From Desulfatiglandales bacterium (GTDB lineage: Bacteria > Desulfobacterota > DSM-4660 > Desulfatiglandales > Desulfatiglandaceae): a stretch of DNA of 64,000 nt. The position numbers and the translations under genes are program-made. Of this stretch, positions 13,614 to 24,056 are shown in pieces. The stretch spans positions 5,344,001 to 5,408,000 of the forward strand of contig OY759599.1 of NCBI GenBank assembly GCA_963662465.1, in the 5' to 3' direction. The first letter of the stretch is position 1. Each line of letters starts with the position of its first letter. Below the pieces are notes generated by a model. That model was given only the letters and a program-made list of their open reading frames with translations, was not told the DNA's origin and did no database searches.

Positions 13614-16346
13614 CTTATCGTTCGCGTTTTAAAAATAAGTTCTGCAAATTTTGCCGAGGAGGCAGGCAGCACTTACTTGGCGGAACAACATCTCCACGAT
13701 AAAATACGATATCAGAGGCATTGGTAGTACATCCCCGGTAAGGATACAGGCCCATAAGGGGAACAGGAACGAGCGCCTTGATAGATTGATTCGAAATTGT
13801 CGTAATTCATAGCTATTATTATTTTTTAATGGATTCAAAAACAATACGATAACATGCTGGAATAACGATGGACATTCACAGCTGTTTGTATTATATTAGT
13901 TTCCCAACATTACAACCACTTGAAATAACAGGGGAACTATATGAACCGACATGTGACGCATGTGTTCATTTTCGCATCAGTGTGTTTTTTGGTTTGGTTT
14001 TGCAGTTTTTCAAAGGTGCAGGCATCACCTGTTTCAGCAGGTACTGGAAATAATATAAATGCCGGTGCATCATCAAATCAACAAACTGGTCAATCTGAAA
14101 ATCAACCCAGACCTTTCGGTCAGAAGAATGATCGGCAGAAAATCCCAAAGCTTGAACGAAACAGGCTGGAAGAAGGTAAAAAATCAGCACCTGTAAGGAA
14201 ACGAAAAAAAAAGAAAAAATCAAATAAAACGAAAACTGCCAAGAAAAAGCGTGAGGGAACTCTATCATCGGATGATGATGCCTCTCACATTGCAAACAAA
14301 AGGAAAAAGGTCAAAAAGATTAACGTTACAGCAGAAAGAGTTGACGATATACCCCTATTGATAAAGGCCATGGTGAAAATGGGTATACAAGAAGCTATAG
14401 ACCAACACATCCCAGTTCAAAAGAACCAAAGAGATTTGAGCTGGGGATGGACGGCTGTTATATGGTTGGCATATATGTTATCGGAGGGAGACCATCGCAA
14501 AGTAGTCGTCCGGGAATATGTATCTGGAATGCGGCATACCTTAATCGAATTAACAGGATTGATAATCTCCGAAAATGATTTCACAGACGATCGTTTAGCG
14601 AATCTTGCCAGGTATTTAAGCGATAACGATATTTGGAGCAAAGTTGAAGAGAGAATAAGTGGCAATACGATTGAAGCATATGAGTTGCCGGAAGAAACTG
14701 TCAGGGTTGATGCTACGACTGTATCCGGCTACCACAAAACAGTTGAAGGTGGGATATTCCAATTTGGTGTTAGTAAAGACGACCCCAATAGACCGCAAAT
14801 AAAAATCATGACGGGTTCGCTGGATCCTCTTGGGATGCCGTTAGCCACGGATGTTGTTCCAGGGCAAATGGCCGATGACAAATTGTATGCACCTATCATA
14901 AGTCGCATTCACTCTATGCTCCAGAAACAAGGTGTCCTTTATGTGGGCGATTGCAAACTGAGTTCTCTTGAAAATCGTTTACACATTAAGGAAAAAGCGG
15001 AAGGACATTACTTATGTCCATTGCCTAATACTGGGAAAACCCCAGAATATATGGAGAAATGGATAGATGAAGGAAATTTGAAAGACAAAAAGAACGAGTT
15101 GATAAAGTACATCGTCCAAGACGATAAAGGTCAAGAGGAACTGAAAGCAAAAGGGTATGAGATAGAGCGTAACCAATCTGGTGAAATAAATGGAAAAGTG
15201 CTGAAATGGAAGGAACGCGTATTGATTGTAAAATCACCAGCGTATGAAAAGCAAAAAGAACTGGGATTGGAACGACGGCTTAAAAGCGCCGAGGAAAAAT
15301 TATATGCTCTGACACCACCAAGAGGCCCGGGGAAAAGGCAGATCAAAGAAAGAGAAAAATTAATAGAATCAGCAAAATCGATTTTGAAAAAACATAGGGT
15401 GAAAGATTTCCTTAAATATGAATATGTGCGGGAAGTAGAAAGTAAAACGAAATATATTGGTAAAGGTAGAGGGAGTGTCAAAAGAGAAAAAGGTTGAAGA
15501 AAGAATACGTTATCAAATAACAAAAGTGACACGGATTAAGGAAGCAATAGATGCGGAGAAGAAGAAGTATGGGTGGAAGGCCTATGTTACAGATGTATCA
15601 AAGGAGCGACTTGATTTTATTGATGTAGTTAGGTCTTATCGAAAACAATACCGGGTTGAACGAATATTTAACCGACTGAAAAGTAGGCTAAACATCGCTC
15701 CATTTTACGTAAAAAGGGAAGATCAAGTTAAAGGAATAACGCATCTTCTGATGATAGGAGTCAGGGTAATTACTCTGGTTGAATTTGTTGTTCGCCGCTC
15801 ATTAGCAAGAAGCGACGAAAAGCTTGTTGGATTGCACCTGGGAAATCCCAAGAAAGCTACGAACAATCCAACGTGTGAGAAGCTATTAAATGCTTTCAGC
15901 AAAATTACATTAACGATAATTGAAACAGGAGATAGTGTGATAAGACATCTAACCCCACTTTCTCAATTGCAACGTGAAATTCTAAAACACTTTGGACTTA
16001 GCACTTCTATATACGATAATTTAGAAGTTATGCAATAGTAAAATATTATCGTCATAGTCCTTACAGGTTGTCACAATTGAAATACAGATTTTACGACAAT
16101 TTATATGATTGTTGGAGATATGGAACGATGGTGTTTTACGCACGATCCATTCCATTTTCTGCCCTATTGTGTTGTTCCAATATTCGACGTGTGTTGTTTT
16201 TCAGGCTTTACTAACCCATGGATGCATGTTGCTCAAAAAGACTCCTGGTAGGCTTTCCGGAAATAACTTTTCCCCCTGCCAAGAGAGGTACCCTCTACCA
16301 GATTTCGAAATTAATCGAAGTGCAAATTTAAAACGCGAACGATAAG
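13614..16346 (+). mobile_element. IS1634-family IS (2733 bp), 6-bp TSD TTACCG
   Basis: Perfect 20-bp TIR CTTATCGTTCGCGTTTTAAA; TTACCG at 13608-13613 and 16347-16352. Confidence 0.92.
13941..16038 (+). pseudogene. IS1634 family transposase, frameshifted near 15480-15495 (ORFs 13941-15497 and 15457-16038)
   Basis: ERVDDIPLL, VRVDATT, FGVSKDDPNRPQIK, YVGDCK, YRKQYRVERIFNRLK. Confidence 0.85.
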
Positions 16347-16678
16347 TTACCGTCATTCCATTCGAAACATACGCGCCACTGCTTATTGATAGTGATAGCA
16401 TATTGCCCTTTTCGATCCTCAGAAAGAGCATGAAATTTGTTTCTTGGGTTAAGCATCAACGCTTTTATGCTGGGGGCGGCATGAAGAACCATTAAGCGTT
16501 TTCTTGCCTGCCTTTCAAAGACTTGAAAGCGGCGTACCCGCTGATCATTAAATAGTTTTTCAGTATCTCGGCAGGCAAATGATCTAATCATGCCTAAAAT
16601 GTATTACGCAAGGCGTAATATGTCAATGTAATGCGTGGAATCCCAGCAAAGAGGTTGCGAAGGGTGGAGACCATCAGC

Positions 16679-16851
16679 GTTTTGCCGAAGCGGCGGGGGA
16701 GGGCCATGAAGTAGTAGCGGCCCTCCTCCAGCATTCGGAGAATCCAGGGGGTCTTGTCCACATACAAAAACCCCTCACTGCGAATGATCTCAAAGGATTG
16801 CAGGTCAATGGGCAGTTTGAGAGGGGGCATTTGGCTGAATCTCCTTAAAAA
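16679..16851 (-). pseudogene. N-terminal fragment of an AAA-ATPase-like (AAA + PD-(D/E)XK) protein, direct-repeat copy 1
   Basis: KLPIDLQSFEIIRSEGFLYVDKT...YYFMALPRRFGKTL; 173-bp near-identical copy at 21922-22094. Confidence 0.8.
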
Positions 16852-17201
16852 ACAAAGGGCTTTTTGAATTTCTTTCAGGATGCTTTAACGGGCCGTCAAT
16901 TGTCAAACAAAAAACAAATAATGGTGGGCGAAGTTAGAACCAAGACCCAAAATCCAATGACGCACCGCATTTCTCTTGCTCCTGAAACCCTTTTATTCTA
17001 TACTTTCCATAAAAAAAACGAAGTTTTAGCGCTTCGTCAATATTGTATCATAGTGCCTGAACGAAAACCTCTAAACATCGTTTTCCAATTTTCGTTAGAG
17101 ATTTACAACTAGATGATATGGTTTCGCTTTTTCACTTAAAACTTAAAACCGTGCCTGAACGGCTTTTTCGTTCAGGCACTATCATAGGATAGGAATTCAG
17201 C

Positions 17202-17567
17202 ATGGACGGGCTAGGTTTGACATCGGATACTGACGGCAAAGACAAGCCGGCGTCAGAGGGATTGCCGCACAATCTTCGAACTTTTTTCTGGGATGTGGAT
17301 ACTGGCAGACTCTCCATTACCGGGTCGGCCCATTTTATCATCGGCCGTTTGATGGAACATGGCGATGAAGACGCGGTGAGATTCCTCTTTAAAAGTTACA
17401 GCCGTGATGAACTGGTCCAGGTTTTGAGAAAGAACAGGACCATTTCAAGGCGTTCACATGTTTTCTGGCGCCTTTTCCTTGGAATCGAAGAAAAATCATG
17501 TACACTGAAACGATATCCAACGCCTTATGGCAACTGCTCAAACGCCTCGATGGATTCCCGGAGTTAA
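17202..17567 (+). CDS. Putative antitoxin (DUF6922-like) of an AbiE-type pair
   Basis: LRTFFWDVD...FIIGRLMEHGDEDAVRFL..YSRDEL...FWRLFL; overlaps the downstream nucleotidyltransferase gene. Confidence 0.75.
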   Translation: MDGLGLTSDTDGKDKPASEGLPHNLRTFFWDVDTGRLSITGSAHFIIGRLMEHGDEDAVRFLFKSYSRDELVQVLRKNRTISRRSHVFWRLFLGIEEKSCTLKRYPTPYGNCSNASMDSRS

Positions 17568-18142
17568 AAATCGCGTATCTGGGGGGTGGAACAGCTCTGG
17601 CGCTTCAATTGGGACATCGCCGTTCTGATGATCTCGACTTTTTCCTTCCGGAAGACTTTAATATACAGACTCTGCTGCGAGAGTTCGGAAAACAGGACAT
17701 GACAATCACGGTTCTCGCTCAGACATCACGCCACACGGAACTTATCGTTCAGTCCTTAAAAGTCGATCTCATCGAAGAGCAGATCCCCCTGACGCGCCCG
17801 GCTCGATTGATCCATCGGGAAATCAGGAATCTGAATATGGCGGATGCCGTGGATATTGGGCGTATGAAACTTCTGACCATCGGGAGCAGGGGCGGCAGGA
17901 AGGATTTTGTCGACCTTTTCTGTCTTACGAGAGACATAATTTCTCTAAAGTCTCTGATCGCCTTGTCCATTGAAGAAAACCGGGGCATCAGGTACAGCAA
18001 ACTATTGTTCTTAAAGGGCCTCGTGGATTTTGAAACGGCCGACCTGGAACCGGATCCTGTCATGATCTGGGAAATAGACTGGGATACTGTGAAAAAAACC
18101 CTGATCGCTGAGGTAAAACAAATCGCCGGTGAGATTTGTTAA
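17498..18142 (+). CDS. Nucleotidyltransferase AbiEii/AbiGii toxin family protein
   Basis: YLGGGTALALQLGHRRSDDLDFF, MKL.TIGSRGGRKDFVDLF. Confidence 0.88.
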   Translation: MYTETISNALWQLLKRLDGFPELKIAYLGGGTALALQLGHRRSDDLDFFLPEDFNIQTLLREFGKQDMTITVLAQTSRHTELIVQSLKVDLIEEQIPLTRPARLIHREIRNLNMADAVDIGRMKLLTIGSRGGRKDFVDLFCLTRDIISLKSLIALSIEENRGIRYSKLLFLKGLVDFETADLEPDPVMIWEIDWDTVKKTLIAEVKQIAGEIC

Positions 18143-18298
18143 TCCACTTTGATCCAAAATATTGCATGAGCGCGTTTTCTGAGAAATGCAAAGGCGTCTT
18201 TGCGGGACATTTCAGATAGCCGGTTTGAAACAGCAGGGCCCCCACGCCCAAACGCTCTAGGTCGTACACACTGAAAAGGGATTGTAAACCTGTTATAT

Positions 18299-18757
18299 TT
18301 AGAAAGACAACATCCTATCCCCACCGATCACACCCTCCACCGTCTCCGGGCGGTTTTTTTGTTTGGTGGATCGTTCTTCTAAATATTGTTCCGCAGCATC
18401 TACCAACAACTGAGATCTTTTCATTCCGGCGCTTGTCCTGTATTCATCTACTCGAACCAACAGTTTTTCCGGGAAAATCACATTAAATCGTTTGGTCTTT
18501 GTATATTTCTTTTTGATAGATTCATTCACCGGAATCGGTATGATTTCAGATTCCGGATTTTCGCTCTGCAACTTTTCACGAGACGATTTTTGATGTACCA
18601 CTGTCTCCTGTTCAGATAAACATGCAGCCAAAGCATCAACCCCCATTTTATAGGCTTCATCCCAGGTTTTACCGAAGGTCTCACAGATTTCCACATCTGG
18701 AATTGAGACTAAGACATTATCATCTTCTTTTGTGAAGACAGCGTAAAAAAACTCCAT
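18299..18757 (-). CDS. hicB: HicB family antitoxin with C-terminal RHH domain
   Basis: FYAVFTKE...VSIPDVEICETFGKTWDEAYKMGVDAL; TKRFNVIFPEKLLVRVDEY....MKRSQLLVDAA. Confidence 0.88.
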   Translation of the reverse strand: MEFFYAVFTKEDDNVLVSIPDVEICETFGKTWDEAYKMGVDALAACLSEQETVVHQKSSREKLQSENPESEIIPIPVNESIKKKYTKTKRFNVIFPEKLLVRVDEYRTSAGMKRSQLLVDAAEQYLEERSTKQKNRPETVEGVIGGDRMLSF

Positions 18758-18889
18758 TTTTGCCTCCTTTTTTATTCTTTAATTCCGGCTCGTTTCAAAA
18801 TATTGTTTACCGTTATATAATAAAAAACCAACAGGTTACACTCCCCATTACAGCATAAATAAATATTTTTCAATAGCTATCGAAAAAAG

Positions 18890-18949
18890 AAACCTCCTGT
18901 TAAGATGAAGTCGCTTTCCAAACAACTTTAACTTAAAAAGGAGGTTTCA
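18890..18949 (+). promoter_or_regulatory. RBS-sequestering hairpin of the IS110 transposase gene
   Basis: GAAACCTCCT...AGGAGGTTTC inverted repeat covering the Shine-Dalgarno. Confidence 0.6.
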
Positions 18950-18950
18950 A

Positions 18951-20237
18951 ATGGACGGTGTAGATACTACCAGGCTGGAGCGTTTTCGTCAATTGAGGAA
19001 GGAAATCCGTGGATCCAAGGAACATTTGATTGTAGGCATTGACGTGGCCAAGGATAATCATCATGCTTTTTTGGGGACAGCCAGGGGAAAAACACTTCTG
19101 AAGCGGTTGGTTTTTAACAACAATTTTCAGGGGTATGAGAAATTGTTCACATACGTTGATGCTACCAAAGTTAAGAATAACCTGAATAAAGTGGTCTTTG
19201 GTCTTGAACCGACCGCCAATTACCACAAACCTCTGGGCGAACATTTGATCAAATGCGGTTTTGATGTGGTGCTTGTGGCAGGCACGGCCGTGAAGAAAAA
19301 CCGTGAATTACTGGATGGGCGCTGGGATAAGCATGATACGAAGGATGCGGCCAATGTAGCGGATTTGGTTTCCCAAGGCAAATGTCTGTTTTACGAATAT
19401 CCGATCATGCCGATTCGTGAACTGCGAAATCTCCTGTCTTTTAAACGTCGGCTGAAAAAACAGGAACATGGGGCCAGAGTACGGATTCGGAATCATTTGC
19501 TTGCTCAGTATTTTCCTGAATTGGATCCTTATTTTTCCCGGATATCAGGCTGTAGCCTTAGCGTTGTGAAATGGTGTCTGGAACCTTCTTTGATTGCAGG
19601 ACTGGAGTACGAAGAGTTCCTTAGGTTGGTCGCACCCGGTAAACGTACGGTAAGACAACTGGAGTACGTGAAGCAGATTTGGGAAAAGGCATTTGAATCC
19701 ATCGGATGTAATGCCGGGGGAACCGTTCAGTTTGAGGCAAAAATGATGGTGGAAGAACTTGAACATGTTCGGGAATCAATTTTGGAAGTCGAAGAAAAGA
19801 TTGAAGAAATTTGCTTGGCTTTTTCTGAATACAAACATCTTCTCACCATACCTGGTTTTGGAAAAGATATTTCATCGAAGGTTTTGGGCGCTATCGGCAA
19901 CCCATTTCGGTTTGATAATGCAAAACAGGTGGTAAAACTGTCAGGGTGGGACCTGAATGCAAACCGTAGCGGAAAAAGTTCAGCGGGTGCTACGGCCGTA
20001 ATTTCTAAAAAAGGCAAAGCCGACCTGCGCTATGCGTTGTACCAGGCGGCCCTGGTTGCTTCATCTAGAAACCAACACTTTGTTGCATACTTTACGGAAA
20101 AACTCCGGGGAAGATCCCGCGAACGGGGCATCAAGACAAAAATGAGAGTGAAACTGGCGGCTAAACTTCTGGTAATCGCGTGGACCTTAATGAAAAAGCA
20201 GGAACCGTTCAATCCTGAATATTTGAAAGTAACATGA
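18951..20237 (+). CDS. IS110 family transposase/recombinase (DEDD)
   Basis: IVGIDVAKDNH, FGLEPTANY, KHDTKDA (DEDD); LLTIPGFG, NRSGKS, ISKKGKADLRYALY. Confidence 0.95.
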   Translation: MDGVDTTRLERFRQLRKEIRGSKEHLIVGIDVAKDNHHAFLGTARGKTLLKRLVFNNNFQGYEKLFTYVDATKVKNNLNKVVFGLEPTANYHKPLGEHLIKCGFDVVLVAGTAVKKNRELLDGRWDKHDTKDAANVADLVSQGKCLFYEYPIMPIRELRNLLSFKRRLKKQEHGARVRIRNHLLAQYFPELDPYFSRISGCSLSVVKWCLEPSLIAGLEYEEFLRLVAPGKRTVRQLEYVKQIWEKAFESIGCNAGGTVQFEAKMMVEELEHVRESILEVEEKIEEICLAFSEYKHLLTIPGFGKDISSKVLGAIGNPFRFDNAKQVVKLSGWDLNANRSGKSSAGATAVISKKGKADLRYALYQAALVASSRNQHFVAYFTEKLRGRSRERGIKTKMRVKLAAKLLVIAWTLMKKQEPFNPEYLKVT

Positions 20238-20380
20238 TAGAAGCCAAATCAGCCAAGAACCTCCGGTAAAGCCGGGGGTTTACTCAGAATAATGTCCACA
20301 CTATCAGGAAGTGGGGGCATGGAGACGGCAGTCAAACGACATCATTGCACAATGAGCAACATAAGACAGCCGGAGTTGAA

Positions 20381-21316
20381 ATGGATGAACTTGAACGATT
20401 TAAAAAAGAAATTAGCCTGATGGAATATGCACCGGCCCACGATTACACTGAGCTTGACCGTAGCCAGTCCAGCAAGACATGTGTAGTACTCAGGCGCGAG
20501 GCTGATGACGGCAAAATCGCAGTGAGCCGGGGCTATGATGGGCATTGGGTTTACTATGATTTCAGGCGTGGCAAAGGTGGTTCAATCCTTGACTTTGTAA
20601 TGCAGCATACCGGCTGCAATCTTGGCCAAACAAGAAAAGAGCTGAGAAAAGCGTTATGCAGCAACGTTAATTCTTTTTCCCATACTGCCCCTTTACCTAA
20701 TCCTCGATCAGCCACCAAGAACCGGCAAAAAGTGGCGTGGGAATATGCTGACACCACGCCCATTACAAGGCATCATGATTACTTGGAAAGCCGGGGGATT
20801 GGCCTTGAAGGCATTTTGGCTGGTCGGTTTGCCGGCGCCGTAAGAGTTGATCGGTATCGGAATGTTTGTTTTCCGTATTTTGATTTTAAGGGGATAGCGG
20901 GTATTGAAAGGCGGAATCATAATTTCAAATGTTACACGAAAGGAGGCAGTAAAGGGTTGTGGAGGAGTACGCTGATAGAGGGTGACTCAAAGGCCGTGAT
21001 TTGTGAAGCTCCAATTGACGCACTTTCCCATAGCAAACTGCGCCATGATAGCAACGACCGAACCAGGTATTTTGCAATCGGCGGCCAGATTAGCTATTTT
21101 CAATGGGAGTTGATTGATGGTCTGATAAAGAAATACAGTTCCGAAAAAATGGATATTTTTCTTGCATTTGACAACGACCCAGCCGGAAGAAAATATATCC
21201 GACAATTCCAGGAGCGTTATTCAGGGGTGTCATTTACGTTAGATTTGCCGCCCCAGGAAGGTCAGGACTGGAATGATGTTCTTCAGAGCAAACAACCAAT
21301 CGAGGGAAAATCTTGA
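20381..21316 (+). CDS. DUF3991/Toprim domain primase-like protein (IS110 cargo); ORF track start 20345
   Basis: GHWVYYDFRRGKGGSILDFV, YLESRGI, VICEAPIDALS, FLAFDNDPAG, GQDWNDVL; GGAG RBS before ATG 20381. Confidence 0.85.
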   Translation: MDELERFKKEISLMEYAPAHDYTELDRSQSSKTCVVLRREADDGKIAVSRGYDGHWVYYDFRRGKGGSILDFVMQHTGCNLGQTRKELRKALCSNVNSFSHTAPLPNPRSATKNRQKVAWEYADTTPITRHHDYLESRGIGLEGILAGRFAGAVRVDRYRNVCFPYFDFKGIAGIERRNHNFKCYTKGGSKGLWRSTLIEGDSKAVICEAPIDALSHSKLRHDSNDRTRYFAIGGQISYFQWELIDGLIKKYSSEKMDIFLAFDNDPAGRKYIRQFQERYSGVSFTLDLPPQEGQDWNDVLQSKQPIEGKS

Positions 21317-21372
21317 TTATTTTCTGAAGGGAAATGCAGTTGTTGTTTTACATATAAAAGCATGCAAGTTTA

Positions 21373-21532
21373 TCAGTGAGAGAGCTCGATGACTAACGTT
21401 GGGACCATTTTGGATCTCGTAGGGGACAATACTGGGCCTCTCACTGAACTTTACAACCTGGATAAGGGATGATAGGTGGCCGCCCAGCAGGGCGAGCATG
21501 CCGGATAAACGTAACGATAAGGTGTAGAGTTC
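21373..21532 (+). ncRNA. Putative IS110 bridge RNA (target-binding loop 21373-21447, donor-binding loop 21446-21532)
   Basis: Two adjacent stem/internal-loop/stem modules whose loop strands match the element's target and circle-junction sequences around the GT core (see findings). Confidence 0.75.
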
Positions 21533-21857
21533 ATAAAAGGTGAGAAACTCACTGAAAACTGCAAAAAGTCCGCAACGGACTTAATGCTGAATTGTGCAAA
21601 AAATTTTGGACATAGCGTAACTACCTGTTATTACAGGGTTTGCAGTTTTTTGAAGTTTTTTCTTGACAGGAGCATTATAGGATGTCCCCTTTGGGATGTC
21701 GGCAGCTTGCCTGGGGATTGGTATTGTTTGTCCGTTTTTTCCCCAAATTTCGTGACGGCCTTCTCGGAGGAAGTTCCACCCGGATGCGCTCAAGAGTTTG
21801 AGTAGTTCCCGCTTTGTCATTTCCGTCCCCCCGCAGTTGAAGTTGGAAGTATTGTAG

Positions 21858-21901
21858 TGTGTAATTGGGTATCAATCAAACGAAAAATACACAATTACAC
21901 A
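21858..21901 (-). promoter_or_regulatory. Inverted-repeat operator upstream of hicAB
   Basis: TGTGTAATTG...CAATTACACA. Confidence 0.55.
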
Positions 21902-21921
21902 TTTTGCAAGACAATTTCCCA

Positions 21922-22094
21922 GTTTTGCCGAAGCGGCGGGGATGGGCCATGAAGTAGTAGCGGCCCTCCTCCAGCATTCGGAGAATCCAGGGGGTCTTGT
22001 CCACATACAAAAACCCCTCACGGCGAATGATCTCAAAGGATTACAGGTCAATGGGCAGTTTGAGAGGGGGCATTTGGCTGAATCTCCTTAAAAA
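21922..22094 (-). repeat. Direct-repeat copy 2 of the AAA-ATPase-like 5' fragment (with nonsense change)
   Basis: Near-identical to 16679-16851; CAA changed to TAA in the coding frame. Confidence 0.85.
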
Positions 22095-22113
22095 TACTTC
22101 CCGGATACCCCAC

Positions 22114-24056
22114 GAGGGGTTTGCGCTGTGCTTAAGTCTCTGGTATCCTGGAGGGATTTGGCAGTGTCAAAAAAACATTACCCCAAAAAAAAGATGGGTG
22201 GGCATCCTGAAATCAAGCACTTAGCTAGATCGAGTCGGAATTTTCCATTTTTTCACCCCAAGCGAAAGAACTTGTCGGAATACCTTGATTTTAATACAAA
22301 ATATTGTACAATGCCTTCATCAGATAACAGGATAGAGTGTTTCTTTAAATATTTGATGGAGGCCGAAACTTGGCAGCAGTGAGTCCGTTTCTTTTTTCGT
22401 GGAATGATGTCGAAGCACGCTCGGATTTGGACCGTTTCTATCTGGTGCGCGATAATCTGCCTGATGAGAATATTGTAGCGGCACTTGAAAAGCGTCGCGG
22501 CAATGGGAGAGATGATTTTCCGATACGCGCAATGTGGAACGCGCTTATTGCGGGAGTCGTGTTCCAGCATGCATCCATTGAATCTTTGATTCGCGAATTG
22601 TCCAGGAATCCGGCGTTATTAGAGGCATGCGGATTTGATATTCTGCCGAGGCAAAAAAAACCGGTAGCTGAACTGAGACGCAATGAGGAAACGGGCCGAA
22701 TGGAAATCATACGGTCTGAGAGCGGAAATGCATATTTTTTGGTTCCAGGTAGTTGGAATTTCTCAAGATTTTTAAGGAGCGTCATAGAACTGGAAGAATA
22801 TGGTAATATGGTCAGCGGCATGGTGCGTGGGCTTCGAGAATCCTTAATGACAGAACTCCCTGATTTTGGTTGTCATTTAGGGTATGACGGCAAGGCTATC
22901 AACAGTTATAGTACGGGACAAGAAAGCCGGAAAACCGGTGAAACCTCCGATACGGATGCAGATTGGGGCAAGCATGAAACGAAAGGGACAGACAGTAAAA
23001 CCGGAAAGCAGTGGACAAAAGTAAAAAGCTGGTTTGGATATGGCCTTCATTTGATCGCTGATACCCTATATGAAATTCCGGTGGCAGTTCATGTAACACC
23101 TGCCTCGCATTCGGAACACAAGGAACTGCGAAGCATGATCAAAGAAATTTTTGAGGAAACACCGCAGCTTGGCGAGCGCTGTGATGATTTTGTGGCGGAC
23201 CGTGGTTTGGATTCCGGCAAAACTAAGGCTCAGCTGTTGGATGAATATGGGATTCGGCCCGGCATTGATACCCGTGAACTGTGGAGAGATGAAAAGAATG
23301 AGCCGGGATACGATCCTGCAAAACCGATCACACGACCTCTTTATCCTGACCGGGCAGATACCATTGTGTATACTGAGAAAGGGACAGTCCATTGTATTTG
23401 TCCGGCTACTGGAGAACAGCGGGACATGGCTTTTTGTGGCTTTGAAAAAAATCGCAATACCCTGAAATATCGTTGTCCCGCAGCTGCAAACGGCTTTTCC
23501 TGTGAAGGATGTGGAGAGTGTTCATCTGCGGGGCAAGTTAATCCCGGAGATTATGGGCGAATTGTCAGAATAAATATCACTGAGGAAGATCGGCGAATCT
23601 TCACACCCATTCCCTATGGTACGCAGGGTTGGGACCGAGCGTATAATCGGCGTTCTTCTTTGGAGAGAATCAACAGTCGGATCGATAATGATTTTGGTTT
23701 TGAGAAACATTACATACGCGGCCAAGCCAAAATGCAAACAAGAGTTTGCTTGGCCACCGCCGTAATGATGGCAATGGCCCTTGGTCATGTAAGGGCTGGC
23801 CGTATTGAGCAAATGCGCTCCCTTGTACGGCCAATAGCCAGAGCCGCCTAATCCAATTTATTTAAAATAGTTATAAATAAATGATTTAATTTAAATTTAA
23901 AGGGATTAGCATGTCCAATTATCGGGTTTTTGGGGTATGTCTTTGGAAACCATAATATTCTGCTGCCATGTCGCCCTCTCAGACCTCGCGCCCGCGTTTT
24001 TTTGGGGCCCAGAACACCCCCGGTACGGCACAAAAACGGTACAGCGCAAACCTCTC
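22114..24056 (+). mobile_element. IS element (IS1182/IS5-like), 1943 bp, 5-bp TSD CCCAC
   Basis: TIR GAGGGGTTTGCGCTGTGC / revcomp GAGAGGTTTGCGCTGTAC; CCCAC at 22109-22113 and 24057-24061. Confidence 0.85.
22370..23851 (+). CDS. DDE transposase (IS1182/IS5-like; DUF772-like N-term, Cys-rich insertion)
   Basis: GYDGKAI, DADWG, WFGYGLHLIAD, VADRGLDS, YNRRSSLERINSRID; GGAGG + TTG start. Confidence 0.88.
   Translation: MAAVSPFLFSWNDVEARSDLDRFYLVRDNLPDENIVAALEKRRGNGRDDFPIRAMWNALIAGVVFQHASIESLIRELSRNPALLEACGFDILPRQKKPVAELRRNEETGRMEIIRSESGNAYFLVPGSWNFSRFLRSVIELEEYGNMVSGMVRGLRESLMTELPDFGCHLGYDGKAINSYSTGQESRKTGETSDTDADWGKHETKGTDSKTGKQWTKVKSWFGYGLHLIADTLYEIPVAVHVTPASHSEHKELRSMIKEIFEETPQLGERCDDFVADRGLDSGKTKAQLLDEYGIRPGIDTRELWRDEKNEPGYDPAKPITRPLYPDRADTIVYTEKGTVHCICPATGEQRDMAFCGFEKNRNTLKYRCPAAANGFSCEGCGECSSAGQVNPGDYGRIVRINITEEDRRIFTPIPYGTQGWDRAYNRRSSLERINSRIDNDFGFEKHYIRGQAKMQTRVCLATAVMMAMALGHVRAGRIEQMRSLVRPIARAA

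Follow-up and report, generated by a model that had tools for sequence, protein, structure and literature searches.

A predicted bridge RNA in the right end of a GT-core IS110-family insertion sequence with a primase-like passenger gene

The closest described relatives of the locus reported here are IS621 and ISCro4 (IS622), whose recombinases combine a DEDD domain with a catalytic serine and whose RNAs present a target loop followed by a donor loop, with the left guide before the right (PMC11208160, PMC11208158, 10.1101/2025.05.14.653916). As published, both systems also share with our locus a 9-nt left target guide, an 8-nt left donor guide, a 2-nt core, handshake bases, bulged A residues and likely repeat-end targets. 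[quoted passage not shown] Because the guide loops change in step with the insertion sites across about 50 relatives, the element is likely an IS110 bridge-RNA recombinase. Its domains, core, two-loop RNA, guide covariation and donor/handshake pairing, the last seen in few independent events, are those of the IS110 family. What is new is the position of the RNA, its closing helices, the GT core, the target class and the passenger gene; the mechanism is already published.

Several features set the element apart from IS621 and ISCro4 as they are described. Its RNA lies in the right end rather than the left, its natural core is GT rather than CT, extra helices extending to the 3' end close both loops, and a passenger gene is present; the recombinase, at 428 aa rather than about 326, has weak sequence likeness to theirs (E 2.5e-16). 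The IS1111 group (ISEc11, ISPa11; PMC11187229) is also reported to have a non-coding region downstream of the recombinase and a predicted joined-end promoter, as found here. In contrast to that group's 11-13-bp subterminal repeats, the longest here are 4-8 nt with one mismatch (43 distinct end pairs), and inverted repeats around the donor measure 0-4 bp. The IS1111 recombinases described are 330-350 aa long, their RNAs place the top-strand complement before the bottom-strand match whereas the left guide precedes the right here, and their GL-P-x4-S/TG motif corresponds to G-x-D-L-x4-SG in our protein. By the criteria of PMC11187229, we therefore rejected membership of IS1111, given the lack of long subterminal repeats, the 428-aa length and the IS110 guide order. 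The same paper names as exceptions those IS110-type elements that have their non-coding region on the 3' side, and by its description our element resembles them in size class (395-455 aa), in short or missing subterminal repeats and in its downstream non-coding region. The expanded cargo-bearing IS110s (10.64898/2026.08.14.744561), as presented in that report, likewise exceed 2 kb, hold plasmid-derived cargo inside intact ends and move as a unit; unlike theirs, the cargo here is a single primase-like gene, placed between recombinase and RNA. The terms 'primase', 'toprim' and 'DUF3991' are absent from the main text of that report. In the literature as far as consulted, neither this clade nor a primase passenger is described; the clade may already be listed in Supplementary Table 5 of PMC11208160.

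The element occupies 18812-21683 (2,872 bp) within hicA. The 3' part of the split gene (18772..18811, minus strand) was identified by sequence reading and is continuous with 21684 in an empty-site contig; the 5' part (21686..21820, minus strand) was identified by PF07927 and the same contig; and hicB (PF15919) lies beyond the 3' part, at 18757. The left target (18805-18811) falls within the hicA 3' part and the right target (21686-90) within the 5' part. The GT core of the left junction (18812..18813, plus strand) consists of two letters that fit either side of the empty-site joint. Next to it, the left end (18814..18950, plus strand), the start of which is conserved across loci, holds the right donor TATAT, the predicted -10 half of a circle-junction promoter and a hairpin at 18890-18947. 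The right end (21663..21685, plus strand), also conserved across loci, holds TTGACA (the -35 half, 21663-68), the left donor (21677-83) and the GT core (21684-85). The empty site came from sequencing run X1, in which a 1,949-nt contig with 0 differences joins 18811 to 21684, with GT shared. [quoted passage not shown] The target and donor reconstructed in the earlier note were thereby confirmed. The joint reveals no target duplication at hicA, and the common core is a short one of 2 letters.

The source genome contains one further copy, partly deleted, and several end fragments of the element, and a 98%-identical element occupies a different site in L006. Three right-end fragments and one left-end fragment lie within 31 kb (G000:C1:7001490-7032610), amid genes of RAYTs, toxin-antitoxin systems and other ISs. 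Stretches made up of an end plus its flank reappear, nearly identical, in L006 and L089, and in L033 the first right end is followed by another at a distance of 160 bp. Such clustered fragments, recurring stretches and the double right end may have been left behind by several rounds of insertion or by incomplete excision. Additionally, copies with internal deletions that have lost the recombinase but retain either the right end or both passenger and RNA were seen in L094, L096, L097, L089 and G000:C1:2925968-2927462, and a DDE (PF13701) insertion sequence sits within the element in L008 (4385-5683), between recombinase and passenger gene. The surroundings in the window (13941-23851) form a cluster of mobile and toxin-antitoxin genes that includes a split DDE transposase (13941-16038), a HigB-like gene, a DUF6922 plus AbiEii pair, hicAB and a second DDE transposase (22370-23851).

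The recombinase gene (18951..20237, plus strand) encodes 428 aa matching PF01548 and PF02371, with NF033542 above its cut-off; both the RuvC-like DEDD domain and the Tnp domain with its catalytic serine are present. Alignment to IS621 and ISCro4 identifies the catalytic residues as D31, E86, D129, D132 and S340, which are kept in 62-66 of 66 homologs. Upstream, the hairpin at 18890-18947 (-23.5 kcal/mol) belongs to a wider pattern, as a Shine-Dalgarno sequence and an upstream anti-Shine-Dalgarno sequence occur in 56/60 distinct upstream regions. This conserved left-end hairpin is predicted to cover the ribosome-binding site and would damp translation of the recombinase. Downstream of the gene, a palindrome (20258..20280, no strand assigned), which we take to be REP-like, lies in a 57-nt stretch confined to the nearest copies: it is present in L002, L006 and L007, absent from L008-L010 and L012, and skipped by an X1 contig.

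Between recombinase and RNA lies the passenger gene (20345..21316, plus strand; likely start 20381), to which Pfam assigns DUF3991 and Toprim domains and whose product has a DnaG-primase fold. Its structure model (pLDDT 87.6) has Aquifex primase 2au3 as best Foldseek match (E 2e-9), and the protein's score of 17.8 bits falls far short of the 283.6 bits set as the dnaG cut-off. Distant relatives (28-39%) are plasmid genes with a relaxase, coupling-protein or Rep gene nearby; matches to the primase profile occur in 7/209 genomes of the class and 1/401 of the phylum, and relatives on viral contigs are distant ones. We consider the passenger most likely a captured plasmid-derived gene that is dispensable for transposition. 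A more ambitious reading is that the clade domesticated a plasmid DnaG-type primase as a working part of the bridge system. It would prime the second strand on the single-stranded product, a circle or figure-eight, that remains when only the top strand is excised, thus making the excised circle double-stranded, and would raise transposition or let the circle persist. The result would be a self-contained, RNA-guided copy-out element, and a primase that helps to complete the circle would be relevant to whether IS110 circles arise by cut-out or by copy-out. Both the bridge system with such a working part and the domestication it implies seem doubtful to us, and the evidence divides. The acidic residues E221, D276 and D278 are intact and the E/DxD residues are kept in 20/20 copies examined; dN/dS is 0.23 over 11 elements (mean dS 0.28), vs 0.09 for the recombinase; the gene, present in 15/66 elements, falls on one side of a branch in the recombinase tree as a single gain (quick tree, support 69); and each adequately covered locus with an 82-96% relative also held parts of the element. 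A 76%-identical primase-like gene stands directly behind istB of IS21, another circle-forming family (L091:1-1450), and published work, as far as its accounts go, describes top-strand copy-out of an IS110 (10.1101/2025.10.25.684509) and a primase acting on circle-forming insertion sequences (10.1101/2023.06.07.543989). However, 51/66 recombinases, including that of the 91% sister L011, do without the gene; in 2/11 distinct cargo elements the gene stops early (at codons 95 and 17), yet each of these is found at two or more sites; the plasmid setting of the distant relatives fits plain capture; and the IS21 link is one locus. In the passenger-free sisters L011 (1550-1700) and L068 (3500-3650), a 135-nt stretch with a long hairpin takes the passenger's place.

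The predicted bridge RNA (21362..21563, plus strand) has a conserved two-loop structure of about 200 nt. An outer helix (21373-78/21550-55, extendable to 21362/21563) and a link helix (21442-45/21539-42) accompany the target-binding loop (21379-21441) and the donor-binding loop (21446-21532). The earlier note had read from a single copy where most of these parts lie, and its reading holds for the first-stem arms (TCAGTGAGAG at 21373-82, CTCTCACTGA at 21438-47), the target guides (21391-99 and 21421-27), the donor stem (21446-55/21523-32), the left donor guide (21464-72) and CGTAAC (21510-15); we also reproduced its match counts of 6/9, 7/7 and 6/9, and found that the right-end position of the RNA and the GT core hold across the clade. 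Its two complete 10-bp stems share 21446-47, and therefore both cannot be complete. For stem 1, the inner eight pairs are 99% kept, while the outer six are standard in just 17-47 of 55 homologs. The full 10-bp version was rejected, as the 5' arm pairs with the linker arm about as well in swapped combinations (-3.0) as in its own (-3.3). Instead, the partner with which the 5' arm covaries is a far 3' arm (21548-21563; -10.1 kcal/mol for own arms, -5.8 for swapped ones), and the linker finds its partner in 21539-44. The RNA therefore runs to about 21563, with both loops closed in one junction, and is longer than the earlier note had proposed.

The region folds better than its shuffles (z -2.56, 3/200), and in the window copy alone the two rival folds of the 5' arm, with the linker or with the far 3' arm, have equal energy (-67.1 vs -66.5). 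Over 55 homologs, a 43-pair model has 89.4% of 2,357 cells paired, against 29-45% in slid controls, and 26/43 pairs show two-sided change. Pairing is kept at 99% in the inner target stem, 96-98% in both hairpins and 85% in the donor stem, parts that agree with the two modules of the earlier note, and the outer helix is the weakest part of the alignment (67%). Each stem and hairpin also carries an invariant bulged A, placed as in the IS621 RNA.

Guide function is supported by the covariation of the target guides with the insertion sites. The left target guide (21391..21399, plus strand) covaries with left flanks, and the right target guide (21421-27), which together with its handshake dinucleotide (21428-29) occupies 21421..21429 on the plus strand, covaries with right flanks. 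Searching with the recombinase yielded 74 loci (48-98% identity), to which a passenger search added 19; 76/98 loci carried the RNA, and target guides could be read from 76/76, with the left end of L055 dropped for having two candidates. The ends were located without the guides but by patterns requiring GT, so the conservation of the core is partly built in. Outside the core, the left guide matched the left flank at 262/336 positions over 48 distinct pairs (shuffled 166.6 +/- 7.8) and the right guide matched the right flank at 139/195 over 39 pairs (shuffled 104.1 +/- 5.1). None of 20,000 flank shuffles reached either total. Displacing the flanks by 7 or 5 nt brought the matches to background (78/294 vs 74.7; 40/215 vs 46.8). 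Among nearest relatives with different guides, left guides fitted their own flanks better in 21 of 24 disjoint pairs, worse in 0 and equally in 3, and right guides did so in 14 of 23, with 1 worse and 8 tied; near-identical copies turn up repeatedly among these supposedly independent pairs. The covariation check proposed in the earlier note was thus passed by both target guides, with controls at background. The matches fall off with distance from the core, the right guide being tight at three non-core positions only (0.95, 0.95, 0.87, 0.49, 0.31), and L047 fits both of its guides poorly. Two loci, L032 and L043, have AT at the left junction; in L032 the left target guide and the right donor guide carry the matching AT, but the right junction is GT, a mixture that may reveal which of the strands becomes fixed once exchange has taken place.

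Under one alternative, the target loop alone is the working guide, acting as a short seekRNA, and the donor loop, like the outer helices, is there as a precursor, as a scaffold or for stability. Published descriptions give this idea some footing, in that short seekRNAs suffice (PMC11187229) and an RNA with the target loop only drives a partial pathway (10.1101/2025.10.25.684509). Furthermore, the donor guides here match less well (left 6/9, right four pairs plus a wobble) and vary little across loci. Nevertheless, the left donor guide (21464..21471, plus strand) and the right end change in step at three loci (L030; L058/L062) from two lineages, and the donor-loop stems are kept at 85-98%. The handshake also speaks for a working donor loop. 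By the rule described between the RNA loops of IS621 (PMC11208158), the base after the right donor guide (21510-15, with its handshake dinucleotide 21516-17; 21510..21517, plus strand) should answer to the left target guide, and the G21516 column complements position 7 of that guide in 72/73 loci. These complements include 7 A/T exceptions and 1 G/C exception, the A/T cases being confined to one Nitrospirota clade and representing 2-3 independent events only. The other handshake base, A21428, faces a T at donor position 7 in 67/67 loci, with no variation. We therefore regard a guide confined to the target loop as improbable and favor the two-loop bridge RNA. That the structure is instead a terminator, an attenuator or a DNA-level end signal, with flank matches due to chance or shared ancestry, is highly improbable: 6/9 matches at a single locus are weak alone and Rfam has no family at its gathering cut-off in the window, but the covariation of guides with flanks holds up against controls with displaced flanks and against swapping between nearest pairs, and the stems accept G-U pairs throughout.

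By analogy with IS621 (PMC11208160, PMC11208158, PMC13626964, as far as these accounts describe it), the bridge-RNA mechanism would begin with excision at the two GT cores into a circle, whose joined ends would form a promoter from TTGACA and the TATATAAT start. One transcript would then run through recombinase, passenger and RNA, to be processed or used as is, and the four guides would pair with target and donor. Top strands would be exchanged after GT, helped by the handshake bases, and insertion would follow. Both promoter halves are present at the joined ends, with TATAAT 19 nt from TTGACA and TATATA at 17 nt. Since the TATAAT spacing is 19 nt and a TA---T hexamer at 16-19 nt is absent in 23/47 loci, the junction promoter is only plausible. 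With 7 sites against 4.6 expected, a simple scan revealed no promoter inside the element ahead of the RNA. Contigs from four runs (X1, X4, X12, X16) contained no circle junction and showed no discrete RNA, and contigs drop rare forms; in the RNA runs X12 and X16, contigs of close relatives cover the element and may derive from DNA.

These observations describe a diverse clade, spread over Desulfobacterota, Nitrospirota and others, with a natural GT core and naturally reprogrammed guides and handshake bases. Non-CT cores of IS621 are reported to be less efficient (PMC11208160), and a clade with an IS621-like RNA in the right end offers a ready scaffold for ortholog screens.

The natural targets also appear to form a class. 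The earlier note had proposed GACTAAC-GT-CCCCT as the preferred target, of which the genome holds 0 perfect copies; the guide of a sibling copy, which differs by one base, matches 12 sites in the genome against an expected 0.93, many of them at RAYT-element ends. Its view of hicA as a relaxed-match site fits better, as the site matches at 5/5 right and 4/7 left non-core positions, inside the range of the relatives (10/48 pairs have 4 or fewer). The single base that separates the guide of the window copy from the sibling guide matches hicA, in this one case. The sibling-guide sites belong to a repeat family in which 7/18 members are no more than 65 bp away from a RAYT (Y1_Tnp) gene and some form the borders of 150-bp miniature elements. 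Among the relatives, a RAYT gene ends 33-123 bp from 7/54 left and 1/57 right junctions, the neighbor check having been made by Pfam on L013, and 47/54 left junctions have no nearby RAYT gene by the profile used. RAYT-type ends at the sibling-guide sites and at the left junctions of relatives make such ends likely one natural target class. REPs are described as targets of IS621 and ISPpu9 (PMC12288879). The preferred natural targets are likely NNNNAAC/GAC-GT-CCC motifs, among which are the termini of RAYT elements and of the miniature versions of these elements. Other target families considered by eye, namely attC, dif and CRISPR repeats, were dropped after the repeats mapped to RAYT ends. The multi-copy RAYT elements encode a 334-aa Y1 transposase with a C-terminal extension and share with the 150-bp miniatures common inverted ends that stop at GT(CCC), as at G000:C1:4146459-4147535, 1356868-1357887, 1352138-1352287 and 1431262-1431416; elements and miniatures alike look mobile as units.
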